From: a virus
Direction: 5' to 3' (one strand)
Length of the DNA stretch: 64,000 bases
Virus record (IMG/VR): IMGVR_UViG_3300013131_004463
Location: 1 to 64,000 of that record
The notes under the pieces were generated by a model. It was not told where the DNA came from. It did not search any database and saw only the letters and a program-made list of their open reading frames with translations. Positions 3,862-23,562 of the stretch are shown here, piece after piece (position 1 is the stretch's first letter; every line of letters begins with the position of its first letter). The translations under genes and the position numbers were made by a program.

Positions 3862-3867
3862 TTCTTT

Positions 3868-4785: not shown

Positions 4786-5751
4786 TTGAACATTCTTTGG
4801 CCAGATATCCATAAAAATCTCACAAAAAATATAGCAAAAGCATTTTCTTTGCTTGGTCACAATCTCATATTACCAAGCAATGAATATATTCCATCTAATC
4901 TTCCACCAAAACAATTTAATCAATGGGTTTGGAACACTAATTGGACACAAGAAAAAGCAAATTTAGAATTTAATTCAAACAATGTCAAAGTTCTTAACAA
5001 AGAACAAATACTAGATCTTAAGCCAGAAATAGTATTTATAACAAGTTTTGAAAGTCAGTTTGAAATATTAAATGAAATTTGGCCTCACCTTAAAGATAAA
5101 AGTAAACTAGCTTGCTATAGTGGCAATGATTATTGGGACGGAGCATATCCTTTTTATATTATTAAAAATTATCTTTGTGCAGATTATGTAGGCTATATGC
5201 TAGCTAATAAATATAAAGTAAACCATCTTTATTATAAACCTTGGGTAGATTATGATAGATGTACTTTTAATGGACCAACTGATGGAAATATAGTTGGAGT
5301 TTATATTTCAGAATATGAAAAGAATTTTAATCAAGAATATAACATGAGCCGCGAACTTCAAAAAATAACACCATATATAGATTATCACTATCATACGAAT
5401 AGCACTCAAGAAGAACTTACAGAAACCCTTAAATCTAGTATTGCTACCCAGCACATTAAACACCTCGAAGGTTATGGCATAGCAATAATCGAAAGCATGG
5501 CCTGTGGCAAGCCAGTATTTATGCATCGTAGGATGGCTCAAAATAAAAGCCTTATGCAGTGGAGCATAGAAAATGTTACTGCATTATTTTTTGAAAGTGA
5601 ATATGAATATATAGCTAAACTAAAAGCATTATACGAAAGCAAAGATTATAGATATTTCCTTCAAAATACAACTGCAAATGTTATAAGACAAATTATTGAT
5701 AATAAAAGAGAAACTGAAAAGCTTGGACATTTTCTTAATAATTTAGTATAA
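4786..5751 (+). CDS. Glycosyltransferase, GT4-like (GT-B fold)
   Basis: EGYGIAIIESMACGKPV (E-x7-E motif); TTGATT-16-TATAAT promoter at 4752-4779. Confidence 0.8.
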   Translation: MNILWPDIHKNLTKNIAKAFSLLGHNLILPSNEYIPSNLPPKQFNQWVWNTNWTQEKANLEFNSNNVKVLNKEQILDLKPEIVFITSFESQFEILNEIWPHLKDKSKLACYSGNDYWDGAYPFYIIKNYLCADYVGYMLANKYKVNHLYYKPWVDYDRCTFNGPTDGNIVGVYISEYEKNFNQEYNMSRELQKITPYIDYHYHTNSTQEELTETLKSSIATQHIKHLEGYGIAIIESMACGKPVFMHRRMAQNKSLMQWSIENVTALFFESEYEYIAKLKALYESKDYRYFLQNTTANVIRQIIDNKRETEKLGHFLNNLV

Positions 5752-5760
5752 TTTTCAATA

Positions 5761-6597
5761 GTGAAAATCTGGCTCTGTGGCATTACCCAAAACGAGAAGC
5801 AGAATATTGATGATATGACAAAAGATATATATCAATATTTTGATGGTTTAATTTTTGTAGATGGCGGCTCAACTGATGGAACATTGGGTATATTAAATGC
5901 AAGAAAAGGTCAAGGAAAGATAATAAATAGAGAATGGTCAAATGATCATGACCTTCAAATGAATGGTTTTTTAAGATCAAATGTTATGCAAAATGGAGAT
6001 TGGTTTATTATAAGAGATAGCTGTGAAAGATTAAATATAGATTGGGCAAAAAATCTTAGATTATTTATAGAGGGATTTTTAACTCAAAATAATATTAATT
6101 CATGCGTTGATAGAGAAAAAGCTTTTCTAATTAAATATAATGATAATATGATATTTCAAGGTAGTCCTCATTGGGGGCTACAAGGCATGCAACCAAATTA
6201 TATAGATCTATATAAATACTATCAAGGCAATCAACAATTATTTGCGTGGGAGGAAAGACCAGCCCAAAGAAAACATTATATTGATAGTGATATGAAATAT
6301 TATTTTGTATATGGCAGATCGAATCACTGTGTCCTACATTATTATGATAATGGGAAAACTCCAGAAAGATATCATCAACAAGAAAATATAAGACAACAAT
6401 TTAGAGCTTATTGTCAATCATTAAATATTAAACTAGATTTAGATTCGCTAAAAACTTATTGGAAAGAGAATCAGCCAGATAATAATATGAAGTTATTTAT
6501 TAATAACGAAAGATTAATAAGAAGATTTTATAGATTAAATATCTTAAATCATTCATTAGAACAAATCGATTCATCAGAAGACTGGAGATTAGAATGA
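5761..6597 (+). CDS. Glycosyltransferase, GT2-like
   Basis: ITQNE...FVDGGSTDGT...WFIIRDSCE. Confidence 0.75.
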   Translation: MKIWLCGITQNEKQNIDDMTKDIYQYFDGLIFVDGGSTDGTLGILNARKGQGKIINREWSNDHDLQMNGFLRSNVMQNGDWFIIRDSCERLNIDWAKNLRLFIEGFLTQNNINSCVDREKAFLIKYNDNMIFQGSPHWGLQGMQPNYIDLYKYYQGNQQLFAWEERPAQRKHYIDSDMKYYFVYGRSNHCVLHYYDNGKTPERYHQQENIRQQFRAYCQSLNIKLDLDSLKTYWKENQPDNNMKLFINNERLIRRFYRLNILNHSLEQIDSSEDWRLE

Positions 6598-7493
6598 AGC
6601 TAATAGATTGTTTTATGTACTTTAATGAGAAAGATATTGCTTATCTTAGAATAAAAGAATTATATGATTCTGTAGATTATTTTGTAATAAATGAAGCCAC
6701 AAAAACTCATCAAGGACAAGACAAAGAATTATCATTTTGGAAAGATACTAGGCTACAAGAATTTAAAGATAAAATTATTTATTCACCAATAGAACTAGAT
6801 GGAAGATTTGATGCCTTGATGCCTAAATTTTTTCCAGATGCAAAAATTGGCGCAAAAGAACATGAGCAAAGAATAAGGCTTTTTGAACAAATCGAACCAC
6901 TCAATTTAGATGATTTGGATACGATTATGATTTCAGATTGTGATGAAATACCTAATAAAAATATTTTTCAAGACATGATTAAATATCCAATAGTAGCATT
7001 AAATCAAATGTTTTTTGTACATTATATTGATATTTATACAAATAAAAATGTAACTGGAACAGTAGCTTGTAAATATGAAGGACTAAAACATTTAAATACT
7101 CTAGGCTTTGGAATGGGTTTTCAACTTTTAAGAAGAGATAAAGATTTTATGCCAAGGCTGGAAAATGGAGGATGGCATTACTCTTATATGGGCGGAGCAA
7201 AATCGGTAAGCCAAAAAGTAGTCTCGACTTATGATGGTAATTTAAATTCTCAATGGAAAACAGAAGAAGCAGCTCAAAAATTAATTAATGAGAGCATTCA
7301 AAATAGACAAAGCCCATTCTCTCAAGAGCCAATTAATATTTTAGATTTTAAATACGCAACTATTGCTGATTTAAATTTCATAACAGCAAAACAAGGTGGA
7401 TGGCATAAATCATCAGCGAGATGTCAATTACATCCTAAAGTACTAGAATTAGATTTTAATGGAGATTTTGAAATCTTAAGGTATAAAAAATGA
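6594..7493 (+). CDS. Glycosyltransferase, GT17 (beta-1,4-GlcNAc transferase/MGAT3-like)
   Basis: IDCFMYFNE..I..LRI.EL...VDYFVI.E, ISDCDEIP and GGWHYSYMG. Confidence 0.8.
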   Translation: MKLIDCFMYFNEKDIAYLRIKELYDSVDYFVINEATKTHQGQDKELSFWKDTRLQEFKDKIIYSPIELDGRFDALMPKFFPDAKIGAKEHEQRIRLFEQIEPLNLDDLDTIMISDCDEIPNKNIFQDMIKYPIVALNQMFFVHYIDIYTNKNVTGTVACKYEGLKHLNTLGFGMGFQLLRRDKDFMPRLENGGWHYSYMGGAKSVSQKVVSTYDGNLNSQWKTEEAAQKLINESIQNRQSPFSQEPINILDFKYATIADLNFITAKQGGWHKSSARCQLHPKVLELDFNGDFEILRYKK

Positions 7494-8368
7494 CAGATAT
7501 AGATTTTATATTAGCCTACGAACAAAATCCATTAATTTATGATTATATCTATAAAAATGGTACTTTTTACAAAAATAGCACAAATCAAAGACAATATCAT
7601 TTCCCAGAAATAGATTTATTAAAAAATAAATTGGATATAGCAGACCAGAACATAAGTAATAATTCTATTATATATTTTTGCATGAATGAATTTGAAAATT
7701 TATTAAATATTTTAAACAACCATTCTAATAAAAAATATGTTTTACTTGCGGATGGAGGAGATGGGAATGTTGAAAATTTAAAATTATCAGATAATATTTT
7801 ACATGTATATTGCCCAAATTTACCATTTTATAATAATAAGTATAGCCCATTTCCAAGAGGAATTTTAAAAGATAATTATTTAAGAGGCACAAAAGATACA
7901 AAGAACTTAGAAAGATCAAAAAATATATATTGTAATTTTACAGTATATTCTTATTCTAATCACAGAATAAATGATTTTAATTATTGGTATAATTTATCAA
8001 AATCAAATGATTATATAACTATAAAAAAAATAAATCACTCAGACGATCAATCTTACTGGAAAGATTTATATGAACACAAATTTAATATATGCTCATCGCC
8101 AGCTTCAGTCGCAGACAAAAATCAGAATAGAGATACGTATAGACTTTGGGAGACTTTAGTCGCTGGCTGTATTCCAGTAATTAAAAGGAGTAAAATGGCA
8201 GAATTTTTCTATAGTTTAAATTTACCAATATTAATAGTTGATCAATGGGAGGAAGCATCTTTAGATTATTTGAATAAAATTTTACAAGAATTTTCCAATA
8301 AATCTTTAGAAGCCACAAAAGAACAATATTGGATAGATAAATTAAGAGGACACTTTAAACATGAATAA
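7490..8368 (+). CDS. Exostosin/GT47-like glycosyltransferase
   Basis: HKFNICS...DTYRLWETLVAGCIPVI...LPILIVDQW. Confidence 0.7.
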   Translation: MTDIDFILAYEQNPLIYDYIYKNGTFYKNSTNQRQYHFPEIDLLKNKLDIADQNISNNSIIYFCMNEFENLLNILNNHSNKKYVLLADGGDGNVENLKLSDNILHVYCPNLPFYNNKYSPFPRGILKDNYLRGTKDTKNLERSKNIYCNFTVYSYSNHRINDFNYWYNLSKSNDYITIKKINHSDDQSYWKDLYEHKFNICSSPASVADKNQNRDTYRLWETLVAGCIPVIKRSKMAEFFYSLNLPILIVDQWEEASLDYLNKILQEFSNKSLEATKEQYWIDKLRGHFKHE

Positions 8369-9065
8369 CCCATTTGATTTTTTTGAAGAAATTTATTGTA
8401 TTAATTTAAATTATCGCACAGATAAGTGGAAAGCCTGTTTAGAGCAATTCGAAAAAATAGGCATACACAATAGAGTAGAAAGATTCGAAGCAATAAAATT
8501 TGAAGGATCACATCCATATGTAAATATTCGTTCGGCTGGATGTTTTGCATCTCACAGAGCAGCAATTAACCTAATTAAAGAGCGTAATTTAAATAATGCT
8601 TTAATTTTTGAAGATGATGTAGAATTTGTAAATGATGTAAATAAACATTTATCTTTATCATTAAATGAATTAAAAAAACAAAATTCATGGGATATATTCT
8701 ACTTAGGCATGCATGTTGGAGAAAAAATGGATAATAATAGACCAAATCAAATTGCATTAGAAAGAGTTGATAAAAATTTATTAAAAGTTAACGTAGCTCT
8801 ATGCGCTCACGCTCAAGCGTATAGCAGAGAGGCATCAGAAATCATTAGCGCAAATATTCCAGAGGGCCAAGCCATCATACCTTGGCTTCAAACAAATGAA
8901 AGCGTAGATGGATGGCTAATGAGACATATTTTACCAAGAGGAAAATCATTTTCAACAAATGAAATATTAGCTACTCAGTCTGAATCTTTTTCAGATAATA
9001 ATTTAGTAATGACAAGATTAGATAAATATTTTGTAGAAGCTTTCTATAAATATAGACCAGCATGA
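8361..9065 (+). CDS. Glycosyltransferase, GT25
   Basis: YCINL..R.D, RFEAI, GCFASH, LIFEDD and AHAQAYS. Confidence 0.8.
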   Translation: MNNPFDFFEEIYCINLNYRTDKWKACLEQFEKIGIHNRVERFEAIKFEGSHPYVNIRSAGCFASHRAAINLIKERNLNNALIFEDDVEFVNDVNKHLSLSLNELKKQNSWDIFYLGMHVGEKMDNNRPNQIALERVDKNLLKVNVALCAHAQAYSREASEIISANIPEGQAIIPWLQTNESVDGWLMRHILPRGKSFSTNEILATQSESFSDNNLVMTRLDKYFVEAFYKYRPA

Positions 9066-9874
9066 TTACTTTTTCTAAACTTGGTCATTTGGGCGCAATT
9101 GGGAATCAACTTTTTCAATATTCTGCATTATATTCTATTGGCAAATTAAATGATTATAATATTAAGATACCAGATACAAAAGAACATTTTTGCGAAGGCA
9201 CAAAAAGAATCCAGCATTATTTTTTGAATTGTTTTAAGAATATTTACGCAGAAGTTTTAAATGAGAATGATTTAAATTCTGTAAAACATAAGGTTGATTG
9301 GGGATATCCCGCGCTTTTTAATCCAGAAGTATTAAGAATACCAGACAATACAGATCTAGAAGGTTATTTTCAATCATACAAGTTCTTTGAAAATTGTAAA
9401 AATGATTTATTAGATCAATTTAAATTTAAAGATTCAATAATAGATAAAGTCCATAAAAAATATAATTTTAATTTTAATGATTTTTCTTCTGTTCATTTAA
9501 GGTGCGGAGACTATATTGGTAGGGATAATCACCATCCAATAATGAATAAAAATTACTATCAAAAAGCATTTCAAATAATAAATGCTTCTAACTATTTAGT
9601 CTTTTCAGATACAATTGATTATGCAAAACAAATTTTTAGTGAATTTAAAGATATTAATTTTATATACATAGAAAATAATCATGCATTTGAAGACATGTAT
9701 CTTATGTCTAGTTGTCAAAATAATATCTTAGCTAATAGTAGTTTTGCTTGGTGGTCTGCATATATAAATAAAAATAATAATAAAGTTGTTGCACCCTCAA
9801 ATTGGTTTGGACCAGCTTATAATGGCCAATGGAAAATTGATGATCTTATGCCTAATAATTGGATTGTAATATGA
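9062..9874 (+). CDS. GT11 alpha-1,2-fucosyltransferase-like protein
   Basis: GAIGNQLFQY, GYFQS, VHLRCGDY, FSD and NSSFAWW. Confidence 0.88.
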   Translation: MITFSKLGHLGAIGNQLFQYSALYSIGKLNDYNIKIPDTKEHFCEGTKRIQHYFLNCFKNIYAEVLNENDLNSVKHKVDWGYPALFNPEVLRIPDNTDLEGYFQSYKFFENCKNDLLDQFKFKDSIIDKVHKKYNFNFNDFSSVHLRCGDYIGRDNHHPIMNKNYYQKAFQIINASNYLVFSDTIDYAKQIFSEFKDINFIYIENNHAFEDMYLMSSCQNNILANSSFAWWSAYINKNNNKVVAPSNWFGPAYNGQWKIDDLMPNNWIVI

Positions 9875-10740
9875 GTAGAGTAACTTGGAATATTTTAGAT
9901 GGTCATTTTGCGCATGAGAAATATTCAGTAGCCGGAAGAGATGCTGAATATGTAAATTGGGATAGAGAATTAAAAGATTTAAATAATCCAACATTCTATT
10001 CTCATATGGAAATGTTTAAAATAGATCAATTAAATACTCCTAAAGAAAATTCATATGGATTAATTTTTGAATCAAGAGGTATTGATTTGCAAACATATAA
10101 TTCTGCAGAACAATTGATTCCTAAATTTAACAAAGTATTTACTCATAATTCTGAATATTTAAAAAAGTACGAAAATTGTAAATGGATTCCAGGAGGAGGA
10201 ATTTGGGTAGGCGGAAGAAAAGATACTCCTCATGCAGAAGGCGAAATAAAAATGCAAGATAAAAATAAATTATGCTCCATGGTTTCATCTAATAAGCAAA
10301 TGTGCAGAGGTCATTTAACTAGATTACAAATAATGAATCTCGTAAAAGATAATACTAAAATAGATAAGTTTTTTGGAGTAGGCGGACCAAATGATAATTC
10401 TGGATGGATACCAATTTTTAGATCTTTAAAAGACTATATGTTTTCTATAGTTATTGAAAATTATATAGACGAGTTATATATAACAGAAAGAATATTAAAT
10501 TGTTTCGCTACTGGTACAATTCCAATATATTTAGGGGCATCAAATATAGGTCAAATTTTTAATATAGATGGAATTATTCATCTAAATTCATTAAATAGCA
10601 TGGAACAATTTAACTATTTAATTGAAAATTTAACCTCAGAGTATTATTATAATAGAATGGATGCAATTAAAGATAATTTTGAAAGATGTTTAAGATATAA
10701 ATCAATAGAAGATTATATATATATAAATTACCTAAAATGA
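9871..10740 (+). CDS. GT10 alpha-1,3-fucosyltransferase-like protein
   Basis: YMFSIVIEN....YITERI..CF..GTIPIYLG; ATG 9871 overlaps the upstream stop. Confidence 0.8.
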   Translation: MSRVTWNILDGHFAHEKYSVAGRDAEYVNWDRELKDLNNPTFYSHMEMFKIDQLNTPKENSYGLIFESRGIDLQTYNSAEQLIPKFNKVFTHNSEYLKKYENCKWIPGGGIWVGGRKDTPHAEGEIKMQDKNKLCSMVSSNKQMCRGHLTRLQIMNLVKDNTKIDKFFGVGGPNDNSGWIPIFRSLKDYMFSIVIENYIDELYITERILNCFATGTIPIYLGASNIGQIFNIDGIIHLNSLNSMEQFNYLIENLTSEYYYNRMDAIKDNFERCLRYKSIEDYIYINYLK

Positions 10741-11504
10741 ATCAAACAAGTATTAGTGATACTCAGAGATATAAAAATGCATGTAAAATGGCAACTATAA
10801 GTGATTTTCATTTTGATTTTTTTAAAAAAGATCAAGCCTATACAGAGATATTAGAGCACGTAAATCAAGAACAAGGTCAAATGTATAAAGATTATCTAGA
10901 CATACATTTTGCCGATTACAAAACTAAATTAGATAAGTTTAAAGAAAATGATATTTATGGTGGCCCAGCGATTTTTAATTATGGTGATTTAGGATTAATA
11001 TCACCAACAACATTAAGATATATTAAAGTATTATCAGATCTAAAAAATTTATATGGATCATTAGATAATTTTAATATTATAGAAATTGGCGTTGGGTATG
11101 GTGGTCAATGCAAGATCATAAGCGATTTTTTTAATATCAGTAAATATTATTTAGTTGATTTAGATGAGGCAACAGATTTAGCACTAAAATACCTTAATAA
11201 ACTTAATGTTAAAAATGTAGAACCAATTAGATTTGATGAAATACAGAATAAAGATTTGAAATTTGACTTAATTATAAGCAATTATGCTTTTACAGAATTA
11301 AACAGAGATATTCAAGATATATATCTAAGTAATATACTTACAAAATCTACGAGAGGCTATATGACCTGCAATTTTATTAGTCAATACTGTAATATTAATT
11401 CTTATTCTCTTCAAGAGTTAGAATTGCAGCTGAAACAATTTAATTTTAAAAAATTTCAAGAATTTCCATTAACTCATAAAGATAATCTAATTCTTTGCTG
11501 GTAA
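10737..11504 (+). CDS. Putative sugar O-methyltransferase
   Basis: SPTTLRYIKV, IIEIGVGYGG, LVDL and DLIISNYAFTEL. Confidence 0.75.
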   Translation: MNQTSISDTQRYKNACKMATISDFHFDFFKKDQAYTEILEHVNQEQGQMYKDYLDIHFADYKTKLDKFKENDIYGGPAIFNYGDLGLISPTTLRYIKVLSDLKNLYGSLDNFNIIEIGVGYGGQCKIISDFFNISKYYLVDLDEATDLALKYLNKLNVKNVEPIRFDEIQNKDLKFDLIISNYAFTELNRDIQDIYLSNILTKSTRGYMTCNFISQYCNINSYSLQELELQLKQFNFKKFQEFPLTHKDNLILCW

Positions 11505-11509
11505 AAAAT

Positions 11510-12211
11510 ATGGACTTTACTTTTGGCATTATAACGACCAAGCAAAATCCAGAATTGGAATTAGAAACAATTATCTCATCTATTAAAAACTTATTAATAC
11601 CAAATTATGAGATATTAATAATAGGCGGAAGCGCAAGTAAGCAAATAGAAAATATAAAAATCTTTTCATTTGATGAAAACCCAAATGGAGCATGGATTAC
11701 AAAAAAGAAAAATTTAATAACACAAAATGCTAAATATGATAATATTGTTTATATGCATGATTATATTATTTTTGATAAAGATTGGTATATAAATTTTTTA
11801 AATTTTGGTAATAATTTTAAAGTATGTATGAATCAAATAATAAATTTAGACGGCACAAGATTTAGAGATTGGACGCTCTGGGCAGAATCCGCAGAACAAG
11901 TAGGTATACCTAATCCATATTATTTAATACCTTATAGCATAAAAAATCTTTCTAAATTAATGTATTTCTCTGGAGCATATTGGGTTGCAAAAAAGAATGT
12001 TATGGAAGAGTTTCCATTAAATGAAAATCTATTTTGGGGCCAAGGAGAAGATGTAGAATGGTCTAAAAGAATTAGAGAAAAATATAATTTCTCTATTAAT
12101 CAAAATTCAATAGTTAGACTTTTAAAGTATAAAAATCCAGCCTTTTTAAGCTGCAATAACTTAGAAAAAATTAAAGAGATAAACGAAATAAAACAATATA
12201 ATAATATATGA
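11510..12211 (+). CDS. Glycosyltransferase, GT2/GT-A-like
   Basis: FTFGIIT, YEILIIG, WITKKKN...AKYDNIVYMHDY and GEDVEWS. Confidence 0.7.
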   Translation: MDFTFGIITTKQNPELELETIISSIKNLLIPNYEILIIGGSASKQIENIKIFSFDENPNGAWITKKKNLITQNAKYDNIVYMHDYIIFDKDWYINFLNFGNNFKVCMNQIINLDGTRFRDWTLWAESAEQVGIPNPYYLIPYSIKNLSKLMYFSGAYWVAKKNVMEEFPLNENLFWGQGEDVEWSKRIREKYNFSINQNSIVRLLKYKNPAFLSCNNLEKIKEINEIKQYNNI

Positions 12212-13164
12212 ATAAAGAAATAACGATAAATTATCTTCCTCATGGAAGATTTAGATATACTCCACATTTTGTTAATGAAATAATCAAAGTTAAAAATTCA
12301 GTTAAAGATTTAATTAAAATAAATTTGATGTTTTCTCATCCATTTAATGAAGAATGGCAAAAAATTGTAGATTTTTTAAAAAATCATGGAATATATTCTG
12401 AGTATTTTGTAACAGATGGCGGTCATTATATGACTAAAATAAAAACAGCTTCAGAAAATAGTGGAAAATATGCCATAAAATACGATGAAGATATCTTTTT
12501 AAATGCAAAAGGATGGGAGTATTTTCTAGAAAATTCAAAAGTTTTAGAAAATGATGAAAATCTTTTCCTTGCCCCAATTATCACAAATGGAATACCAACA
12601 GTTGATATTTTTATAGAGCAATTTTTTGACGAAAAAGCTAAAAAAGAAATTCATGATTTATTCTTAAAAGTACCATTTGCAAATGAATGGGGAGTTGATT
12701 ATTCTAGTTTAAGAAAATATGTAACAGAAGCAAGCGAATGGATTCCAGATAATTTTTATGAAGGAGTTAAAGGAATAAATCATCATTACAAAGGAATACA
12801 TCCTATTCGTTTATCTGGAGAAGCTCAATACTATATGGTAAATTATATACTAAATAATTTTGAAAGATTTATCGAGCCAAAAAATTATTCCATCTCCGAA
12901 GTTAAGAGACCATATCATTGTAATGGAATTATGATGATAAAGAATGAAACATGGAAAAAAATTCTTTATAATCAGTCTCTTTTTAGAGATGATTTTGACG
13001 AAGTTCCATTTAACTTATACAGAGAATCTAATAATTTAAAAATGTTATTTATTAATAACTGCTTTGCAGTTCATCCGTCTTATAATACAATTGATGGAAA
13101 AGGTTTTTTTTATACTCATCTTTCAGATGCATTCTTTAATTATCCATATTTTACTAAAAATTAA
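12208..13164 (+). CDS. Putative GT-A fold glycosyltransferase
   Basis: YAIKYDEDIF DxD-like motif; lies inside the GT cluster. Confidence 0.5.
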   Translation: MNKEITINYLPHGRFRYTPHFVNEIIKVKNSVKDLIKINLMFSHPFNEEWQKIVDFLKNHGIYSEYFVTDGGHYMTKIKTASENSGKYAIKYDEDIFLNAKGWEYFLENSKVLENDENLFLAPIITNGIPTVDIFIEQFFDEKAKKEIHDLFLKVPFANEWGVDYSSLRKYVTEASEWIPDNFYEGVKGINHHYKGIHPIRLSGEAQYYMVNYILNNFERFIEPKNYSISEVKRPYHCNGIMMIKNETWKKILYNQSLFRDDFDEVPFNLYRESNNLKMLFINNCFAVHPSYNTIDGKGFFYTHLSDAFFNYPYFTKN

Positions 13165-15177: not shown

Positions 15178-15179
15178 TT

Positions 15180-15803: not shown

Positions 15804-15810
15804 ATATTTT

Positions 15811-15842
15811 TATTATATATTATATATTATATATTATATATT
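15811..15842. repeat. Tandem repeat (TATTATA)x4.5
   Basis: Intergenic, 12 nt upstream of ATG 15855. Confidence 0.85.
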
Positions 15843-15854
15843 GATACAATTAAT

Positions 15855-16283
15855 ATGAAAATAATATCCCACAGAGGAAATTTAAATGGTGAAAATTTAT
15901 CTACTGAAAATTCTATACCAGCAATTAATATAGCCTTATATCATGGATTTGACGTAGAAATAGATGTATGGTATAAAAACCACAATTGGTTCCTTGGTCA
16001 CGATAAACCTCAGCATCTTATAGAAGAATCTTTCTTACAAAATAAAAAATTATGGTGTCACGCAAAGAATCTAGAGGCTTTAAATTTTATGTTAAAAAAC
16101 AAATCAATACATTGTTTTTGGCATCAAAATGATGATTTTACAATAACTTCAAAAGGATATATTTGGACATATCCAAATAAAATTACCAGAGAAAATTCAG
16201 TAATAGTATTAAATAACAAAAAAGATAAGATTCCAAAAAAATGTTTTGGTATATGTACAGATTTTCCATTAAAATATATTTAA
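15855..16283 (+). CDS. Small GDPD/PLC-like phosphodiesterase
   Basis: IISHRGN, ENS, DVEIDVW, LGHD, WCHAKN and GICTD. Confidence 0.75.
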   Translation: MKIISHRGNLNGENLSTENSIPAINIALYHGFDVEIDVWYKNHNWFLGHDKPQHLIEESFLQNKKLWCHAKNLEALNFMLKNKSIHCFWHQNDDFTITSKGYIWTYPNKITRENSVIVLNNKKDKIPKKCFGICTDFPLKYI

Positions 16284-17257
16284 TGAAAATTATTGTAACT
16301 GGCGGACTTGGTTTTATCGGTTCTAATTTTATTAAATATATAATTAATAAAAAAGAAACAAATATTGTTATAAACATAGACACAACAACAAAACAATATT
16401 CGGCATCGAATAAAGATAACGTAAAAGCTTTTGAAGACAATCCAAAGTATAAATTTTATGATTTCTGGTTAGAAATGCTAGATAATCCTTCCGTTAAAAA
16501 TGAATTTAAACAAATAATAAAAGAAAACAATATAACTCACATAGCGCATTTTGCCGCCGAATCTCATGTTGATAATTCAATATCTAATCCAAGACGATTT
16601 ATTCAGTCAAATATATTCGGTACATTTAATCTATTAGAAATTATTAGAGATTTTCCAGAAATTAGATTTCATCATATTTCTACTGATGAAGTTTATGGCA
16701 GTTTAGGTGAAGAAGGTAAATTTACAGAAACAACAGCGTATGCTCCAAATTCCCCATATTCTGCATCAAAAGCGGCTAGTGATATGTTAGTCAGAGCTTA
16801 TAATCATACTTTTAAAAGTTTAATTACAATTTCTAATTGCTCTAACAATTATGGTCCAAATCAACATAATGAAAAATTTATACCAGTTGTTATAAATTCA
16901 ATACTAAATAATAAAAAAATACCTGTTTATGGCAACGGAAAAAACATAAGAGATTGGATTTTTGTTAATGATCATTGTGAAGCAGTATGGTCTGTATTAA
17001 ATAATGGCAAAATTGGTGAAACATATAATATAGGCGGAAATTGTGAAAAAACAAATTTAGAGATTATCAATGATATTTGCGAAATATTAAATGTTAATTC
17101 TCAAGATTATATATCTTTTGTAGAAGATCGTAAAGGTCATGATTTTAGATATGCTATAGACAACACTAAAATAAATAAAGAATTAAATTGGTATCCAATC
17201 ACATCTTTTAAAGACGGATTAAAACAAACAATTGATTTTTATAAAAATTTGTTATAA
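16283..17257 (+). CDS. rfbB: dTDP-glucose 4,6-dehydratase
   Basis: VTGGLGFIG, HFAAESHVDNS, STDEVYG, PYSASKA, NNYGP and DRKGHDFRYA. Confidence 0.93.
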   Translation: MKIIVTGGLGFIGSNFIKYIINKKETNIVINIDTTTKQYSASNKDNVKAFEDNPKYKFYDFWLEMLDNPSVKNEFKQIIKENNITHIAHFAAESHVDNSISNPRRFIQSNIFGTFNLLEIIRDFPEIRFHHISTDEVYGSLGEEGKFTETTAYAPNSPYSASKAASDMLVRAYNHTFKSLITISNCSNNYGPNQHNEKFIPVVINSILNNKKIPVYGNGKNIRDWIFVNDHCEAVWSVLNNGKIGETYNIGGNCEKTNLEIINDICEILNVNSQDYISFVEDRKGHDFRYAIDNTKINKELNWYPITSFKDGLKQTIDFYKNLL

Positions 17258-17266
17258 TATAACAAT

Positions 17267-18406
17267 ATGAGTTTGAACTTTCAAGAAACCTATTATGGTA
17301 AAAAGATAGATACTTCCAATATTTTAAATATTGAAGACGCTAGTAGAATAATTAATGGAAAAAAAACAGTAGTAATAACTGGCGTAACTGGTCAAGATGG
17401 AAGTCATATGGTTGATTTTTTACTTAAAAATACAGATTATCTTATTTTTGGTGGAGTAAGAAGGTTGAGCGTATATAATCATGAAAATATTAAACACATT
17501 AAATCTGATAGATTTCATCTTATTAATTTTGATCTAACTGATTCTCATGCTATATCTAGGACTGTAGAAAAACTTCAACCAGATTATTTTATTAACTTTG
17601 CTGCTCAAAGTTTTGTTGCAAGTAGTTGGGATTTTGCTAGACAAACTTGGCAAACTAACTCCACAGCAGTTCTTGATATTTTAGAAGCAATTAGGCTCTA
17701 TAAACCATCTTGCAGACTTTACCAAGCTGGATCAAGTGAGGAATTTGGAAATGTACAATATGCTCCTCAAGATGAAAATCATCCATTAAAACCAAGAAGT
17801 CCATATGGGGCAAGCAAAGCAGCTTCTAGACAATTAGTTAAAGTATACAGAGAATCTTACAATACTTATGCTATTCAAGGATGGCTATTCAATCACGAAG
17901 GAACTAGGCGAGGTGAGGAATTCGTTACAAGAAAAATTACAAAAAATGTAGCAAGGATTTATAATTCAATAAAAGAAAATAAAGAATTTAAACCTCTCGA
18001 ACTAGGAAATATAGACGCAAAAAGAGATTGGAGTGATGCAGAAGATTTTGTAGAGGGCGTCTGGATGATGTTAAATCAAGATAAATATAATCCAAATTAC
18101 GATGGAACACCAAAAGAATATATTTTCTCATCTAATGAAACTCACACAATCAGAGAGTTTGCAGAAAAAGCTTTTGCTTATGCTGGAATTAATGGAGAAT
18201 GGATTGGTGAAAAAGAACACGAAGTATACTTATCTAAAGATAAGAAAGTATTAATTCAAATTAATCCTAAATTTTATAGACCAGCAGAAGTAGAGGTTTT
18301 ACTTGGAGACTCTAATAAAGCTAGAAAAGAATTAAATTGGAAACCTAAATCATCATTAAATGATCTTATTGAAAAGATGGTAAAAAATGATATTAAAAAT
18401 TTATGA
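17267..18406 (+). CDS. gmd: GDP-mannose 4,6-dehydratase
   Basis: ITGVTGQDGS, AQSFV, SPYGASK, FNHE...RGEEFVTRKI, LGNIDAKRDW and YRPAEV. Confidence 0.93.
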   Translation: MSLNFQETYYGKKIDTSNILNIEDASRIINGKKTVVITGVTGQDGSHMVDFLLKNTDYLIFGGVRRLSVYNHENIKHIKSDRFHLINFDLTDSHAISRTVEKLQPDYFINFAAQSFVASSWDFARQTWQTNSTAVLDILEAIRLYKPSCRLYQAGSSEEFGNVQYAPQDENHPLKPRSPYGASKAASRQLVKVYRESYNTYAIQGWLFNHEGTRRGEEFVTRKITKNVARIYNSIKENKEFKPLELGNIDAKRDWSDAEDFVEGVWMMLNQDKYNPNYDGTPKEYIFSSNETHTIREFAEKAFAYAGINGEWIGEKEHEVYLSKDKKVLIQINPKFYRPAEVEVLLGDSNKARKELNWKPKSSLNDLIEKMVKNDIKNL

Positions 18407-19257
18407 TACTATTAATTGGATCTAGTGGCTACATTGGCACCGAATTCGTTAAACAATTAGATAAAAAAAATATAAAATATTATACTTTATCATATAAAGA
18501 AGCAAATTATAAAAATATAAAATCCCTATATGATCTTTATAATATAAAATACTTGATAAATTCAGCAGCTTTTGTTGGCAAACCAAATATTGAAGCGTGT
18601 GAGTCTCAAAAAGATAAATGCATAGAAGGTAATATTTTACTTCCCATTTTATTGAAAAATATATGTGAGCAATTTAATATAATTTATTGCCATATCTCAA
18701 CTGGATGCCTTTATAATGGTGCCACGTCTGAATTAAATGGATACAAAGAAATAGACGAACCTAATTTTAATTTTAAATATAATAACTGTGGTTTTTACAC
18801 AGGGACAAAAGCCTTAACAGAAGACTTGATTAAATCATATCCTCAAAATTATATCTGGAGAATAAGATTACCATTCGAACAATTTCATAACGATAGAAAT
18901 TATATATCAAAAATTATAAAGTATGATACTTTGATTACAGAAAAAAATTCACTAAGTAATAAAAGTGAATTTGTAAATGCATGCATAGAAAGTATATTGA
19001 AAGAAATACCATTTGGAATATATAATATAACCAATACAGGATCTATATCTGCATCTGATATTTTTGAAAAAATTAAAAAAACAATAATGCCAAACAAAAA
19101 AGCTAACTTTTTGACAATGGATGAATTTTATAATAAAATAAGTTCTATGCCTAGATCAAATTGTATCACAGATAATTCAAAAATAAGATCTACAGGTATT
19201 AAAATGTTAGATGTAAACGAATCCATAGATCTTTGTCTGAAACATTGGACTTGGTAA
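18403..19257 (+). CDS. NDP-4-keto-6-deoxyhexose 3,5-epimerase/4-reductase (RmlD or NRS/ER-like SDR)
   Basis: GSSGYIG, GKPNIEACE, STGCLY, FYTGTK, RIRLP and RSNC. Confidence 0.75.
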   Translation: MILLIGSSGYIGTEFVKQLDKKNIKYYTLSYKEANYKNIKSLYDLYNIKYLINSAAFVGKPNIEACESQKDKCIEGNILLPILLKNICEQFNIIYCHISTGCLYNGATSELNGYKEIDEPNFNFKYNNCGFYTGTKALTEDLIKSYPQNYIWRIRLPFEQFHNDRNYISKIIKYDTLITEKNSLSNKSEFVNACIESILKEIPFGIYNITNTGSISASDIFEKIKKTIMPNKKANFLTMDEFYNKISSMPRSNCITDNSKIRSTGIKMLDVNESIDLCLKHWTW

Positions 19258-19258
19258 T

Positions 19259-20386
19259 ATGAATACTATTATTGATCTAGGAGAGATACCTTTAGTTAAT
19301 AATCTATGCCTCTCTAAAGAAGAATCTTTAAATTGTAAAAAGTTTCCATTAAAAATAATTCAAAAAGAAGATCTAATTATGAAATTAGAGCTAGAAATTA
19401 ATTCTAATGATATGTTCTTTAATTATCTTTATAGAACAGCAGTAAACACTCCTTACATAGACCATTGTAAAAAAATGTGGAAACAATTAGAAAAATATAA
19501 TCCTAAAACCATAGTTGATATTGGCGGTAATGATGGATCTTTATTAAAATGCTTCAAATCAGAATCAAAAACTAATTTAAAATTAATAAATGTTGATGCT
19601 AGTTCATCTTTTAAAGAAGAAAATGAAAAAAATGGAATTATATATCATAATGCTTATTGGGGAGATTTTATACTTGATGAAAAAATAGATTTAATTACAT
19701 CTACGAATGTATTTCAGCATAATCCAGACTATCGTAAATTTTTAAAAGGTATAAAAGATAATTTAAATGGTATTTGGGTTTTAGAGTTTCCATATTTTTT
19801 ACATACAGTTAAAACTAATCAATTTGATCAAATTTATCACGAACATGTCTATTATTGGCTAGTAACACCTTTGATTAAATTGTTCAGAGAATATGATTTA
19901 AAAATACAATCAATCACGCAATATGATATGCATGGAGGATCTCTTAGAATCATATCTTCAAATAGAACAGAAGATCAAGAGAACAAAGAAATTATTAATT
20001 ATTATTTAAACATAGAAAGAGATTTTAATTTTAAAAATTGGGGCAAACAAATAAAAAATAGAATAATTCAAGATTTAAATTTTATAAACTCATTAAATGG
20101 TGAAATTGCTGTATTTGGTGCAGCTGCAAAAGGTTGTGTTTATTTAAACACATTAAATATCTCAAATAAAATATCATATATTGTAGATGATACAAAAGAA
20201 AAGCAAAACAAATTTTGTCCAGGAACTGGATTGAGAATTGTTGATAGGGAATATTTTTACAAAAATAATCCAGATTATTTGATTATTTTAGCTCATAATT
20301 TTAAGGATTATATTACTAAGTCAATTAGAAATGATGGATTTAAAAATAGAATCATAACTATGATACCCAATATACAAATATATTGA
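19259..20386 (+). CDS. NDP-hexose C-methyltransferase
   Basis: DLGEIPLVN, DIGGNDG, FDQIYHEH, HGGSLR, FGAAAKG and KQNKFCPG. Confidence 0.85.
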   Translation: MNTIIDLGEIPLVNNLCLSKEESLNCKKFPLKIIQKEDLIMKLELEINSNDMFFNYLYRTAVNTPYIDHCKKMWKQLEKYNPKTIVDIGGNDGSLLKCFKSESKTNLKLINVDASSSFKEENEKNGIIYHNAYWGDFILDEKIDLITSTNVFQHNPDYRKFLKGIKDNLNGIWVLEFPYFLHTVKTNQFDQIYHEHVYYWLVTPLIKLFREYDLKIQSITQYDMHGGSLRIISSNRTEDQENKEIINYYLNIERDFNFKNWGKQIKNRIIQDLNFINSLNGEIAVFGAAAKGCVYLNTLNISNKISYIVDDTKEKQNKFCPGTGLRIVDREYFYKNNPDYLIILAHNFKDYITKSIRNDGFKNRIITMIPNIQIY

Positions 20387-20411: not shown

Positions 20412-20417
20412 TATACA

Positions 20418-21722
20418 ATGACAAAAAAAGACAAGATCTTAAATTTCATAAATTCTTTAGAACAAGAGGAAAACACTTTTATTCCTCAGTTTTGCCATAA
20501 TTTAAAAGATACAAAAAATAAAGTATACTATGGCGGACCATCATATACAAAAGAAGAACTTGTAGAAGCTATAGATACCCTTCTATTTGGCAAATGGTTA
20601 GCTAGTGGTGAAAATGTAGCCAGATTTGAAAAAGAATTTTCAAAGAGAATTAATGAAAAGTACTCTGTCATGGTTAATTCTGGTAGCTCTGCTAACCTAG
20701 TAATGATTGCAGCACTTAAGAAGTATTTTAATTGGAAAGATAATGATGAGATTTTAGTTTCAGTAGTAGGTTTTCCAACTACATTAAATCCTATTATTCA
20801 AAATAATCTAAAACCAGTATTTGTAGATATTGAGTTCGAAACGCTAAACTTTGATCTAGATCAACTAGAACAAAAGATCGGTAAAAATACGAAAGCTATA
20901 TTTATATCGCCAGTATTAGGAAATCCACCAGATTTTGATAAACTTATTGAAATTTCTGAAAAACATAATATTCAACTAATTTTAGATGGATGTGATAGCT
21001 TTGGAAGCAAATGGAAAGATAAACATTTAAATGAATATTGCATAGCTTCTAGTTGCTCATTCTACCCAGCGCATCATTTAACTACTGGAGAGGGAGGCAT
21101 GGTCTCTTCTAATATCGAAGAAATCATTAACTTAGCAAGAAGTTTTGCGTGGTGGGGAAGAGATTGTTATTGCATTGGTGCTTGTAATCTTTTGAAGAAT
21201 GGAAGTTGTAATTCTAGATTTTCCAACTGGATTAAAGAAGTACCATATAATATTGATCATAAATATTTCTTTACTCAAATTGGATACAATTTAAAACCGT
21301 TGGATTTACAAGGTTCAATTGGATTAGTTCAATTAAAAAAAATGCATGAATTTCATAGCGCAAGAGTATCAAATAAAAATAAAATTCAAAATATTTTATC
21401 TAAAATTCCTAATTTGAAATTTCCGTCTGTTTTTGAAAGTGCAGACGTTTCTTGGTTTGGAGTGCCAATTATTTGTGGTTGTTATCTATCTAAAAATAAT
21501 CTAGTAAATTATTTAGAAGAAAATGGAGTTCAAACTAGAAATTACTTTGCTGGAAATATACTTTTACATCCAGCCTATAAACATTTAGAAGATTGGAAAA
21601 ATTATCCTAACGCTAATACTGTTCTTGAAAAAGTATTTTTTGTCGGATGTTCTCCAACTATTAGTGAAAGTAACATAGAGTATCTAGAAGGTGTTATTCA
21701 TAGATATGATATCAAAAATTGA
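20418..21722 (+). CDS. rfbH: CDP-4-keto-6-deoxyglucose 3-dehydratase (RfbH/DdhC; PMP- and Fe-S-dependent)
   Basis: NSGSSANL, SFYPAHH (His at the PLP-Lys position), TGEGG, WGRDCYC Cys cluster and GYNLKP. Confidence 0.85.
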   Translation: MTKKDKILNFINSLEQEENTFIPQFCHNLKDTKNKVYYGGPSYTKEELVEAIDTLLFGKWLASGENVARFEKEFSKRINEKYSVMVNSGSSANLVMIAALKKYFNWKDNDEILVSVVGFPTTLNPIIQNNLKPVFVDIEFETLNFDLDQLEQKIGKNTKAIFISPVLGNPPDFDKLIEISEKHNIQLILDGCDSFGSKWKDKHLNEYCIASSCSFYPAHHLTTGEGGMVSSNIEEIINLARSFAWWGRDCYCIGACNLLKNGSCNSRFSNWIKEVPYNIDHKYFFTQIGYNLKPLDLQGSIGLVQLKKMHEFHSARVSNKNKIQNILSKIPNLKFPSVFESADVSWFGVPIICGCYLSKNNLVNYLEENGVQTRNYFAGNILLHPAYKHLEDWKNYPNANTVLEKVFFVGCSPTISESNIEYLEGVIHRYDIKN

Positions 21723-22527
21723 TCTTTTTGGCGGAACAGGTTTTGTAGGTAGTAATTTTTACAATTTATATAAATCAGAAACCTATATTCATCCAAGAGA
21801 AGACAATGTTCCACTTTATCGGGATGTTTTATACATGATTAGTACAACTGATAATTATAATGTTCTTGAGAATCCATATAAAGATATAGAAGTTAATTTA
21901 ACTAAATTAATTAAAGTGTTAGAAAGCTGTAAGAATAAAAATATTATTTTTAACTTTGTAAGTTCTTGGTTTGTCTATGGCGATGTTGAATTACCAGCGA
22001 AAGAAAGTTATTGCTGTAATCCTAAAGGATTTTATTCTATTACAAAGAAATGCGCAGAAGATTTACTTGTAAGCTATTGTAAAACATTTAATATAAATTA
22101 TAGAATATTCCGACTAGCAAATGTATATGGAAATAAAGATATTGGAGTATCTAAAAAGAAAAATGCTTTAACATATTTAATTAATGAAATAAGAAATAAT
22201 CAAAATATTAATTTATATTTTAATGGAGAATTTATAAGAGATTATATTCACGTAGAAGACGTTTGTAAAGCCATAAAACTCTGTATAGATAAGGGTAATT
22301 TAAATGAAGTATATAATATTGGAAATGGAGAACCTTTAATATTTAAAGATATTATAGATTATGTAATTAATAAAATTTCTTCAAAATCATTAGTAACTGC
22401 TATAGACCAACCAGAATTTCATAAAATAGTTCAAGTAAAAGATATGTATTTAGATAATAATAAAATTAAACAATTAGGTTTTAAAAAAGAAATTGACATT
22501 TATCAAGGAATTGATAGACTTATATAA
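21706..22527 (+). CDS. NAD-dependent epimerase/dehydratase (SDR)
   Basis: FGGTGFVG, SSWFVYG, YSITK, RLANVYG and RDYIHVED. Confidence 0.85.
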   Translation: MISKIDLFGGTGFVGSNFYNLYKSETYIHPREDNVPLYRDVLYMISTTDNYNVLENPYKDIEVNLTKLIKVLESCKNKNIIFNFVSSWFVYGDVELPAKESYCCNPKGFYSITKKCAEDLLVSYCKTFNINYRIFRLANVYGNKDIGVSKKKNALTYLINEIRNNQNINLYFNGEFIRDYIHVEDVCKAIKLCIDKGNLNEVYNIGNGEPLIFKDIIDYVINKISSKSLVTAIDQPEFHKIVQVKDMYLDNNKIKQLGFKKEIDIYQGIDRLI

Positions 22528-22853
22528 TGTCAAAACACAAGCTTTGCCAATTACTAGTAAAAAAATTTGTAAAAGGAGATGTTAATTGGCCAAGAGAAAT
22601 TAAAATAGCTCAAAAACTAGTTAAAAGATTTAAAGAATTTGAATTTTGGAATAATCTTAAAGAACTAGGAAGTCCACCGCCATCATTAGCTTGGTTTCTT
22701 AAAACTGAAGGGAAAGCTTTTTTATTAAAAGAATATGAGAGTTTTAATATAAAATTAAATATACCTAAAATAAAATTAAAAGAAAATAAAGTAGAAGATG
22801 ATAAAAAGATTTGCAAAAAACCAAAAACATTGTTAGACTTTATAAGAAGATAA
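22527..22853 (+). CDS. Hypothetical protein
   Basis: 108-aa ORF; promoter TTGACA-16-TAGACT at 22493-22520. Confidence 0.65.
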   Translation: MSKHKLCQLLVKKFVKGDVNWPREIKIAQKLVKRFKEFEFWNNLKELGSPPPSLAWFLKTEGKAFLLKEYESFNIKLNIPKIKLKENKVEDDKKICKKPKTLLDFIRR

Positions 22854-22854
22854 A

Positions 22855-23562
22855 ATGAAAAATACAGCTCTTACATCAGCAATAAACTATAATGATTATT
22901 TGAAAATTTTTAAACAACATAATTATGATTATTTTGATGAAATATATGTTGTAACAGATTTAAATAAAGATGAAGAGTTAGAGCAAATATGTAGCCAATC
23001 TAAATTTAAATTAATAAAAACAGATAAATTTTATAGTTTTCAAAATCAACCAGCTAAATTTAACAGGGGCGCAGCGTATACATACGCTATGAGTTTATTT
23101 GAAAATCCCGAAATAATTACTATAATAGACGCGGATACATTACTTCCAGAAATCTATCATCTTATATTTAAAGAATTAAAATCAAGAGGTAAATTTGATC
23201 AAATGATAAGCGCCAGAAGATTTGTTCTAGAAACTTATCAGGATTATTCAAAAGTTTTTATTGAAAAAGATGTTAATTATACTCCAGAAATGAGAAGTTT
23301 TGATTGGGGTTGGGGATATCTTCAAATTTTTCATGCAGGAAGTAAATGGTTAAAAAATGGACTAATATATCCAGAAAATTATGACTGCGCTGTTTCAGAT
23401 TTTATGTTTAGAAAACAATTCGGATGGCACATTTTTAGGCAAGATACAGAAGAGCATTATTGGGACCCAGAAGCACAAATTTGTTTAAGACAGCATTCAG
23501 TTTATGGACTTGGTCCGAATAATATAAATTCTAGAGGTAGAAACGCGCCAGCATTTAAATAA
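22855..23562 (+). CDS. Putative GT-A fold glycosyltransferase
   Basis: YVVTD, FNRG, IIDADTLL, GYLQIF and SDFMF. Confidence 0.6.
   Translation: MKNTALTSAINYNDYLKIFKQHNYDYFDEIYVVTDLNKDEELEQICSQSKFKLIKTDKFYSFQNQPAKFNRGAAYTYAMSLFENPEIITIIDADTLLPEIYHLIFKELKSRGKFDQMISARRFVLETYQDYSKVFIEKDVNYTPEMRSFDWGWGYLQIFHAGSKWLKNGLIYPENYDCAVSDFMFRKQFGWHIFRQDTEEHYWDPEAQICLRQHSVYGLGPNNINSRGRNAPAFK

Follow-up and report, generated by a model that had tools for sequence, protein, structure and literature searches.

On which acceptor does a tailed phage build a complex glycan when it encodes a large set of soluble glycosyltransferases (GTs)? The question is raised by a stretch of 64,000 nucleotides (hereafter the window), which is the start of one linear virus record of 79,230 bp in IMG/VR (IMGVR_UViG_3300013131_004463; GC content of about 29%). 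A block of glycan genes at positions 4786-23562 of the window, designated the island, had been taken by a first-pass annotation, made from the letters alone, as machinery for cytoplasmic assembly of complex, methylated, deoxysugar-containing glycans on capsid or tail proteins. The cytoplasmic enzymes for methylated deoxysugars and fucose-type sugars were found as proposed, and the virion as their acceptor has circumstantial evidence only, consisting mainly of three GT genes located directly behind the fibre gene. We tentatively favour a phage-encoded glycan assembly line, operating wholly in the cytoplasm, for which the virion would be the most likely acceptor.

Genes of the island and their predicted product

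The island comprises 23 open reading frames (ORFs), all on the plus strand and tightly packed, many with 4-bp overlaps between stop and start codons. About ten GTs had been claimed for this block. Five of them were above Pfam cut-offs: a GT4-type enzyme of the GT-B fold (4786-5751; Glycos_transf_1, 29.3 bits), an 88% identical homologue of which ends the island of the relative G002, a GT17 enzyme (6594-7493; Glyco_transf_17, 56.6 bits), a GT25 enzyme (8361-9065; Glyco_transf_25, 40.9 bits), a member of the GT11 or α-1,2-fucosyltransferase family (9062-9874; 73.3 bits), and a member of the GT10 or α-1,3/4-fucosyltransferase family (9859-10740; Glyco_transf_10, 49.8 bits). Three others remained below threshold, namely a GT2-like enzyme (5761-6597; Glycos_transf_2, 17.5 bits; PHROG 13126, 'beta-1,4-glycosyltransferase', E 9e-9), a weakly matching GT47/RXYLT1-like protein (7490-8368; Pfam, 19 and 18.6 bits), and a GT2_4-like enzyme (22855-23562; Glyco_tranf_2_4, 24.7 bits for a cut-off of 27.5), which is 88% identical in G002. 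The two additional GT-A enzymes that had been announced were not recovered. The three consecutive ORFs that start at 11495, 12208, and 13164 (238, 318, and 214 residues; 11495-13808) matched no Pfam or PHROG family, and only the middle one (12208-13164), whose ESM Atlas features lie near GT2 clusters at 0.97, may be GT2-like, this being a language-model lead. For the record as a whole, the count is 11 firm GTs and up to about 16 possible ones, and glycan genes occupy about 24 kb of the 79 kb.

The three methyltransferases and several nucleotide-sugar enzymes expected in the block were all identified. The methyltransferases are a sugar O-methyltransferase of the NanM type (10737-11504; NCBIfam TIGR04371, 84.9 bits for a cut-off of 44), a nucleoside diphosphate (NDP)-sugar C-methyltransferase (19259-20386; Pfam Methyltransf_14, 83.5 bits, in addition to Methyltransf_23), and a weakly assigned class-I enzyme (15180-15803; 21-26 bits for several Pfam methyltransferase models, each close to or under its cut-off). 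Six ORFs encode nucleotide-sugar enzymes. A fusion of a HAD/β-phosphoglucomutase-like module with a sugar-1-phosphate nucleotidyltransferase (13801-15177; Pfam HAD_2, 99 bits, and NTP_transferase, 44 bits; NCBIfam bPGM family and rmlA_long) is predicted to make an NDP-sugar. It is accompanied by a dTDP-glucose 4,6-dehydratase (RmlB; 16241-17257; NCBIfam TIGR01181, 420 bits for an equivalog cut-off of 365), a GDP-mannose 4,6-dehydratase (GMD; 17267-18406; Pfam, 354.6 bits; NCBIfam gmd, 333 bits), an RmlD-like 4-ketoreductase (18403-19257; Pfam RmlD_sub_bind, 57.8 bits; NCBIfam rmlD, 57 bits, under the cut-off), a pyridoxal phosphate (PLP) enzyme of the DegT family nearest to the RfbH or 3-dehydrase type (20418-21722; Pfam DegT_DnrJ_EryC1, 236.5 bits; NCBIfam RfbH, 372 bits for a cut-off of 423), and a short-chain dehydrogenase/reductase (SDR) of the epimerase/reductase type with a divergent N-terminus (21691-22527; Pfam Epimerase, 103 bits, model positions 81-240), to which proteins of equal length correspond in the relatives G015, G018, and G020. 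Two other ORFs encode a 142-residue protein (15855-16283; PHROG 34507, no function named, E 3e-23) and a conserved 108-residue protein (22527-22853) adjoining the RecA-like gene, which matched no Pfam or PHROG family and is 64-76% identical at the equivalent position in G002 and G003.

Assigned by family, the mutase/nucleotidyltransferase fusion and RmlB would generate a dTDP-4-keto-6-deoxyhexose, and GMD would generate GDP-4-keto-6-deoxymannose. The reductases and epimerases, the 3-dehydrase-type PLP enzyme, and the C-methyltransferase could convert these intermediates into fucose or other 6-deoxy, dideoxy, and branched sugars, which at least 11 soluble Leloir GTs and the sugar methyltransferases would assemble stepwise into a fucosylated, methylated, deoxysugar-bearing oligosaccharide. 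The GT17, GT25, GT11, and GT10 enzymes are encoded almost consecutively, ahead of the O-methyltransferase gene; a unit resembling N-acetyllactosamine and carrying α-1,2- and α-1,3-linked fucose could be one product of these four families. Cytoplasmic assembly of fucosylated, methylated deoxysugar glycans is thus a well-founded prediction from the enzyme families. A scan of positions 1-20000 for sigma-70 promoters and terminators revealed no excess over shuffled sequences, and a TTGATT-16-TATAAT site at 4752-4779, before the island, is for this reason not retained as evidence.

The absence of membrane spans noted at first sight was confirmed by a Kyte-Doolittle hydropathy scan, which detected none in any island ORF or in the GTs, and no protein with more than four predicted spans was encoded by the contig, G002, or G003. 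Profiles of export parts were searched in the contig and in four relatives that are 86-100% complete (G002, G003, G004, and G014), and well-known genomes served as positive controls. In this set, no match was obtained for initiating phosphoglycosyl transferases (PF02397, Bac_transf, and PF00953, WecA/MraY type; controls positive in 10-13 of 14 genomes), Wzx (PF01943), Wzy (PF04932), or GtrA (PF04138), and the only signal for an ABC exporter (PF00005) was a sub-threshold P-loop match inside DnaB. A search for a tyrosine-type integrase (PF00589) was also negative, which suggests a lytic life style. The proposal that the block is neither an O-antigen or capsule locus nor a classical seroconversion locus therefore stands, since the export parts and the integrase are absent, in the near-complete relatives as well: the data support an island that depends neither on Wzx/Wzy nor on an ABC exporter and that does not belong to a seroconversion system of the GtrABC type.

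Candidate acceptors of the glycan

Five further GTs had been located at 34-37 kb and 61-63.5 kb, and all were found again, the ones at 34255, 36192, 62019, and 62816 by Pfam and the one at 61151 by a low-confidence fold only. Three of them are encoded behind the fibre gene on the minus strand. The fibre gene (1228 residues; Pfam BppL_N, 46 bits; beta-helix-like repeats in the sequence) has its 3' end in the window (63569-64000) and extends to position 67255 of the contig. The run of GT genes begins 9 bp after it, in equal orientation, and consists of a GT25 gene (62816-63559; Pfam, 60.7 bits), its tandem GT25 paralogue (62019-62765; 46.7 bits), and, as the last gene, 61151-62017, which encodes a GT-B, GT9-like protein recognized by fold only. 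For the latter, Foldseek returned a probability of 1.0 to WaaF (1psw, E 1e-8), a GT9 structure (3tov), TibC, and WaaC, from a low-confidence model (pLDDT 56) with TM-scores of 0.36-0.47, and homologues are located near structural genes in 8 relatives.

The hexamer GTGTAA occurs 93 nt upstream of the fibre gene (contig position 67349), and its next copy is found only at 61128, past the three GT genes. Because they all sit between two consecutive copies, the fibre gene and the three GT genes look like one unit. G002 repeats this order, with the fibre gene, a GT9-like gene, and then GTGTAA. The hexamer is strongly enriched between genes, where 13 of 25 copies lie in the contig (3.6% non-coding DNA), 33 of 45 in G002, and 31 of 60 in G003. 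Most copies are sense-oriented, most stand in front of structural genes, and the usual distance to the start codon is 8-40 nt; examples from the hexamer scan are at window positions 2453, 25161, 39781, 39797, 55070, 57427, 58694, and 61128. GTGTAA is a candidate for an element specific to the phage that acts as a promoter or in translation start. As it is also found ahead of a small gene of the replication module, it is not strictly 'late'.

The other two GTs lie on the plus strand within the replication module. The first is a 640-residue protein combining GT4, zinc-ribbon, and DUF4214 parts (34255-36177; Glycos_transf_1, 30.4 bits), with counterpart ORFs of 636-653 residues that match Glycos_transf_1 in most relatives. 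The second is GT9-like (36192-37343; Glyco_transf_9, 25.8 bits for a cut-off of 22; Foldseek matches to WaaF, WaaC, and other GT9 structures). This pair belongs to the core genes of the lineage. Searched by sequence against solved structures, the products of 36192, 34255, and 61151 gave no useful match.

In the mechanism that we favour, the acceptor would be the phage's own particle: sugars would be added to the fibre, and to further proteins that are exposed and either of the beta-helix type or rich in Pro/Thr, inside the infected cell and prior to assembly, as has been shown for mycobacteriophages and giant viruses. The fibre would be the substrate of the three GTs encoded behind its gene, and the large island would provide donors and lengthen the chain. 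The fibre and the adjoining 488-residue protein are beta-helix/beta-roll repeat proteins, the type of protein that is modified in bacteria by the GT9-like enzymes TibC and AAH, and the 61151-62017 product has the GT9-like GT-B fold of these enzymes in its low-confidence model. To our knowledge, tests of soluble GT sets encoded by lytic viruses have so far identified either the virion or DNA as the acceptor. A Pro/Gly/Thr-rich protein of 242 residues with a mucin-like C-terminal PT tract (3868-4596, plus strand), encoded 189 bp upstream of the island, is a candidate acceptor and a lead only; it contains the sole Pro/Thr/Ser-rich window of the contig and has no Pfam match.

Tracts of this kind were also seen elsewhere in the lineage. 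Between its capsid and fibre genes, G003 encodes a 461-residue protein with a mucin-like (TAPTVAP)n tract of about 200 residues (L049:11554-12939, plus strand; contig 153372-154757), and the homologue in our contig (68556-68930) has 124 residues and no tract. A related phage fragment encodes a 195-residue protein with long poly-Thr/Ala-Pro runs (L059:4174-4761, plus strand), convergent with a GT32-like gene (5713-6129, minus strand). Two other potential signals were discarded: the Ser/Thr content of the virion proteins is above that of the enzymes but generic for beta-rich proteins, and the fibre contains no collagen-like G-X-Y runs that would make it a GT25 target.

Several observations weigh against the virion. 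Pro/Thr/Ser-rich tracts are present in only 7 of 80 related loci and fail as an acceptor signature of the lineage, and the capsid and putative tube proteins have no obvious glycosylation tail. The main island contains no GTGTAA copy of its own and leads directly into the replication genes, which share its orientation. Among 80 relatives, GTs occur within 10 kb of the capsid gene in only 10, sporadically, and the GT25 pair was found only in this contig. TibC and the heptosyltransferases of lipopolysaccharide (LPS) synthesis rank equally high for the GT9-like fold models, which did not separate protein-modifying from LPS-modifying enzymes and are too coarse for the TibC-specific iron-finger Cys cluster and dodecamer, and GT9, GT25, GT8, GT4, and HtrL are typical families of LPS-core synthesis. 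Relatives additionally encode a protein of about 835 residues, in which a signal-like N-terminus is combined with a PATR repeat and a PEP-CTERM sorting motif, followed by a pilin-like (N_methyl) protein of 222 residues (L101:9253-12404, plus strand, in G002; L095:203-3342, minus strand, in G003). This pair is 94-96% conserved between G002 and G003, adjoins the glycan island in G003, and implies, as judged from these motifs, a Gram-negative host with an exosortase and a lineage that would also act on the host envelope. The 222-residue protein, which has one span, had been considered as a small PglC-like initiating transferase before its pilin-like nature was recognized.

We rank the virion first as acceptor, with remodelling of the host envelope, which we hold to be unlikely, as a close second. 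In that case, soluble GTs at the cytoplasmic face of the inner membrane would extend either a lipid A-core (lipo-oligosaccharide type) or an undecaprenyl-linked unit that host WecA had begun, leaving export to host MsbA/Lpt or Wzx/WaaL; the resulting glycan would then block superinfection or keep progeny from adhering to infected cells and debris. The GT9, GT25, GT4, and GT2 enzymes of this contig, together with GT8 and HtrL_YibB in relatives, are families that build the LPS core, whose enzymes are soluble or peripheral and require no dedicated exporter. In the extension of LPS cores and lipo-oligosaccharides, soluble or peripheral enzymes of families GT9, GT25, GT8, and GT4 work at the cytoplasmic face and the product leaves through host MsbA/Lpt. 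The missing exporters, from which the first-pass annotation had excluded glycans of the host surface, do not decide against the host envelope because LPS-core GTs rely on general host export. The grouping of the island with replication genes, and not with late genes, is also in favour of this acceptor, as are the PEP-CTERM and pilin-like proteins of the relatives, which target the host surface and adjoin the island in G003, and the fact that homologous clusters of cyanomyoviruses are currently ascribed, as a hypothesis, to envelope remodelling (PMC1079782, PMC9602691, PMC12801897). Conversely, the phage has no integrase and no lysogeny module, LPS newly made during lytic infection would presumably merely dilute the old surface, three GTs lie within the fibre gene run, and the host bins are inconsistent, so that LPS in the host is not certain. 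We know of no lytic phage that has been experimentally proven to remodel LPS with soluble GTs.

A division of labour is improbable, though less so than the readings that follow. The island would glycosylate phage-encoded secreted or surface proteins before export, or make a free or small-molecule glycoside, and only the late GTs would modify the virion; in the complete relatives, the PEP-CTERM/PATR protein, the pilin-like protein, and the Pro/Thr-rich protein of 242 residues would be the candidates, at the same low probability. GT9-like TibC/AAH attach heptose to beta-helix proteins of the autotransporter type while these are still in the cytoplasm, ahead of Sec export, TibC is among the fold matches, a PATR-repeat PEP-CTERM protein exists in relatives, and enzymes for C-methyl and 3-deoxy or amino sugars are also typical for glycosylated natural products. 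However, the PEP-CTERM and pilin genes are not on the contig, no genes of aglycone synthesis were seen among its annotations, and the case is wholly circumstantial. Hypermodification of DNA, in which the GTs would place sugars on modified bases to evade restriction, is very improbable. Among phage GTs, relatives of LPS enzymes, some of them heptosyltransferase-like, are indeed able to glycosylate 5-hydroxymethylcytosine (bioRxiv 10.1101/2023.12.21.572611), and the core pair of GT4- and GT9-like genes sits within the replication module. Glycosylated DNA requires, however, a ThyA homologue, or a C5 methylase together with a TET/5mYOX enzyme (bioRxiv 10.1101/2023.12.21.572611; PMC13326640). Searches for ThyA-type hydroxylases or hydroxymethylases (PF00303), TET/JBP (PF12851), and C5 DNA methylases (PF00145) gave no match in the contig and the four near-complete relatives, ThyX alone being present, and a DNA acceptor is unlikely because these enzymes, which create the base hydroxyl handle, are absent. 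Fucosyltransferases, O- and C-methyltransferases, and more than ten GTs also go far beyond the known mono- to trisaccharide modifications of DNA. That a bacterial polysaccharide locus was misassembled onto phage DNA, a chimera that the first-pass annotation had itself raised, or that the island is the flank of a prophage, is barely credible. The genes are of bacterial type and the contig is linear and incomplete, but independent IMG/VR records hold a homologous island at the equivalent site beside the RecA-like gene, with end genes that are 82-88% identical, the island and the phage agree in GC content (0.26-0.28 for the island), phage genes are present on both flanks, and parts of the island recur in lake metagenomes from several studies. 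The recurrence at this site in independent relatives indicates that the contig is not a chimeric assembly.

The island among relatives and known systems

G002 is syntenic with the contig along its whole length and has an island of 13 kb between the RecA-like gene and a GT4 gene; the island of G003, at the equivalent anchor, is about 9 kb. GMD is 84-88% identical in G002 and G003, while the GTs differ. The stretch holding the ORFs assigned to no family, the HAD fusion, the C-methyltransferase, and the RfbH-type enzyme is missing from G002, which has instead a second GT11 gene, a GT8 gene, a firm GT47 gene (72 bits, at another position of the island), and a GT32-type gene. The G003 island encodes a UDP-glucose/GDP-mannose dehydrogenase, an HtrL_YibB protein, a GT2, and a GT4. 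A family census over the 21 records with a length of 60 kb or more counted 13 with SDR sugar enzymes, 14 with GT1-type domains, 11 with GT2, only 4 with GT25, and only 3 with GT11. By these comparisons, the island is a swappable cassette of which GMD is the conserved anchor across the lineage. Such a combination of variable transferases with an invariant anchor and donor gene is reminiscent of serotype loci, and the exchange of the GT set between close relatives indicates that the glycan is probably strain-specific. In the full proposition, a freshwater siphovirus lineage would use about 16 soluble GTs and sugar-nucleotide pathways of its own to cover its particle, at the fibres or decoration proteins, with a complex oligosaccharide that is fucosylated, methylated, and specific to the strain, the swappable cassette acting as a virion 'serotype' locus. 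We regard it as possible but doubtful.

The nearest known systems are the clusters for 'LPS' or cell-wall synthesis and modification of T4-like cyanomyoviruses (P-SSM2 genes 257-271, S-SCSM1, and S-SCSM2R). P-SSM2 has 24 'LPS' genes in two clusters (PMC1079782), S-SCSM1 encodes GMD, fucose synthase, fucosyltransferases, GTs, and RmlB (PMC9602691), and S-SCSM2R encodes 13 GTs, including GT10, GT11, and GT25, a number considered by the authors to be possibly the highest in a marine phage (PMC12801897). The scale of the present set, described at first as more typical of giant viruses, is therefore matched in cyanomyoviruses (13 GTs or 24 'LPS' genes; PMC12801897, PMC1079782). These clusters and the island have in common densely packed, co-oriented genes for NDP-sugar SDRs, soluble GTs (GT1/4, GT2, GT10, GT11, and GT25), and a methyltransferase; the phages concerned are aquatic, lytic, and devoid of exporters (PMC1079782, PMC9602691, PMC12801897), and in both cases the functions are predicted. 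A comparison of annotated genes with P-SSM2 genes 257-271 revealed a shared architecture, with identities of 42% for GMD (PSSM2_257), 34% for GT11, and 31% for GT25. Homologues of GT11 were found in 104 GenBank phage records, nearly all of cyanophages, at 32-37% identity. The cyanomyoviruses are T4-like myoviruses of cyanobacterial hosts, whereas our phage has a lambda-like tail tip and a DnaE replisome and comes from fresh water. The island differs further by its anchor beside the RecA-like gene, by the exchange of GT content between close relatives, by the extra GTs behind the fibre gene, and by added GT17, GT47-like, C-methyl, and 3-dehydrase functions.

Glycosylation of capsid and tail-tube subunits of mycobacteriophages has reportedly been described by Freeman et al. 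in 2023 in Cell Host Microbe (cited in PMC12619734 and PMC12801897). These lytic or temperate siphoviruses likewise use soluble GTs and a methyltransferase for cytoplasmic virion glycosylation. They possess few GT genes, infect actinobacteria, and carry glycans on C-terminal tails identified by mass spectrometry. Among giant viruses, chlorovirus PBCV-1 has capsid glycans and a viral GMD, and Mimivirus and the Megavirinae have clusters for their fibrils. Like the island, these systems vary between strains, comprise GMD and other sugar-nucleotide enzymes along with numerous soluble GTs and methyltransferases, and involve methylated or deoxy sugars that are rare; unlike it, they belong to viruses of eukaryotes with proven virion glycans. 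The system described here has at least 11 GTs plus donor synthesis, against the few GTs of the mycobacteriophages, belongs to a tailed phage, unlike those of the giant viruses, and has a putative acceptor. LPS with Lewis antigens of the Helicobacter pylori type and the outer core of lipo-oligosaccharides are built by a GT25 galactosyltransferase, GT11 and GT10 fucosyltransferases, GT9, GT8, and GT4. The shared GT families are soluble or peripheral there too, acting on a lipid-linked cytoplasmic acceptor, but those assemblies need an initiating transferase, a flippase, and a ligase from their own genome, none of which is encoded by the phage.

Since the description of P-SSM2 (2005), lytic phages of aquatic habitats have been known to carry large clusters of soluble glycan enzymes. 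With at least 11 firm and up to about 16 GTs, against the 13 called 'highest' for a marine phage, the present set is among the largest reported for a phage. The lineage provides a natural comparison series, with a shared backbone, exchanged GT cassettes, and GT genes directly behind the fibre gene, and these features make a twenty-year-old question about the acceptor approachable by experiment. Were the virion the acceptor, lake phage particles would wear strain-specific glycan coats, with a bearing on adsorption, grazing, stickiness, and phage-host recognition, and a coat made for its own particle would amount to autonomous glycosylation of giant-virus grade in a tailed phage. Were it the host envelope, this would be the first remodelling of LPS by a lytic phage with soluble enzymes only.

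The phage and its lineage

The first-pass assignment to a tailed phage was borne out: genes for a long tail of the non-contractile type, with a lambda-like tip and a tape measure protein, accompany a capsid gene and a replisome of the DnaE type. The contig carries the tail-tip genes gpM, gpL, gpK (JAB), and gpJ, a tape measure gene of 2481 codons, and a capsid gene recognized by a weak profile match. The tube, portal, and adaptors are named by position only because a PHROG search with ten proteins of the structural region matched no family. The replication module encodes a RecA-like protein, DnaB, ThyX, a primase, a PD-(D/E)XK nuclease, and a split DnaE. In place of one gene for this family-C DNA polymerase, the contig has (29515-33694, plus strand) a PHP-domain gene, a DEDD exonuclease gene, a 71-residue ORF, and an 865-residue core, and the same split occurs in G002 and G003.

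No terminal repeats were detected in the 79,230-bp record, the completeness of which is 53% according to CheckV. The relatives G002, G003, and G004 have sizes of 133.6 kb (87% complete), 171.9 kb (100%), and 136 kb (87%), respectively, and the phage is probably a siphovirus with a genome of about 130-170 kb, of which about 53% is on the contig. The capsid and putative portal proteins had no match among 50,697 GenBank phage records. In contrast, 378 relatives of the capsid protein were found in IMG/VR, on contigs of up to 172 kb, and the GT9-like core protein (36192-37343) has 519 metagenome homologues, all of which, among the matches listed, fall inside the lineage. Island sequence was found in lake and other freshwater metagenomes from several studies. 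The many relatives in IMG/VR and metagenomes and the lack of a GenBank phage match identify an abundant freshwater lineage that has no cultured relative. Assignment of a host from bins was abandoned: the capsid homologues occur in low-GC bins labelled Proteobacteria, 'Rickettsiales', and Flavobacteriales, which are inconsistent and probably driven by composition.

The left end of the window (1-4786) has a GC content of 0.35, due in part to Pro/Gly codons, and has no homologue in G002 or G003. It contains a tmRNA gene, a gene for an fn3-like protein of 464 residues preceded by GTGTAA, and the gene for the Pro/Thr-rich protein described above. The tmRNA (1419-1807, plus strand; Rfam RF00023, 102 bits) has a tag peptide predicted by ARAGORN, AKTAKYKGHISTRVSLVEETTSVA, without the usual ...LAA end, and a GTGTAA copy is present at 1390, 29 nt upstream. 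The 464-residue protein encoded upstream of the island was compared with a 471-residue protein at the equivalent place in G002 and the two are unrelated. A protein with a spermidine-synthase fold (150-809, minus strand; 32 bits), which was not found in G002 or G003, shows a faint match to the N-terminal domain of the flagellin glycosyltransferase Maf. The adjacent ORF-free stretch (815-1159) had no Rfam match at the gathering threshold. At the other end of the record, a BspA-type leucine-rich-repeat protein of 427 residues (L001:14195-15478, minus strand, equivalent to contig 77195-78478; LRR_5, 189 bits; 25% Ser+Thr), for which G002 and G003 contain no homologue, is encoded next to a lysozyme and a lipoprotein-like ORF of 138 residues.

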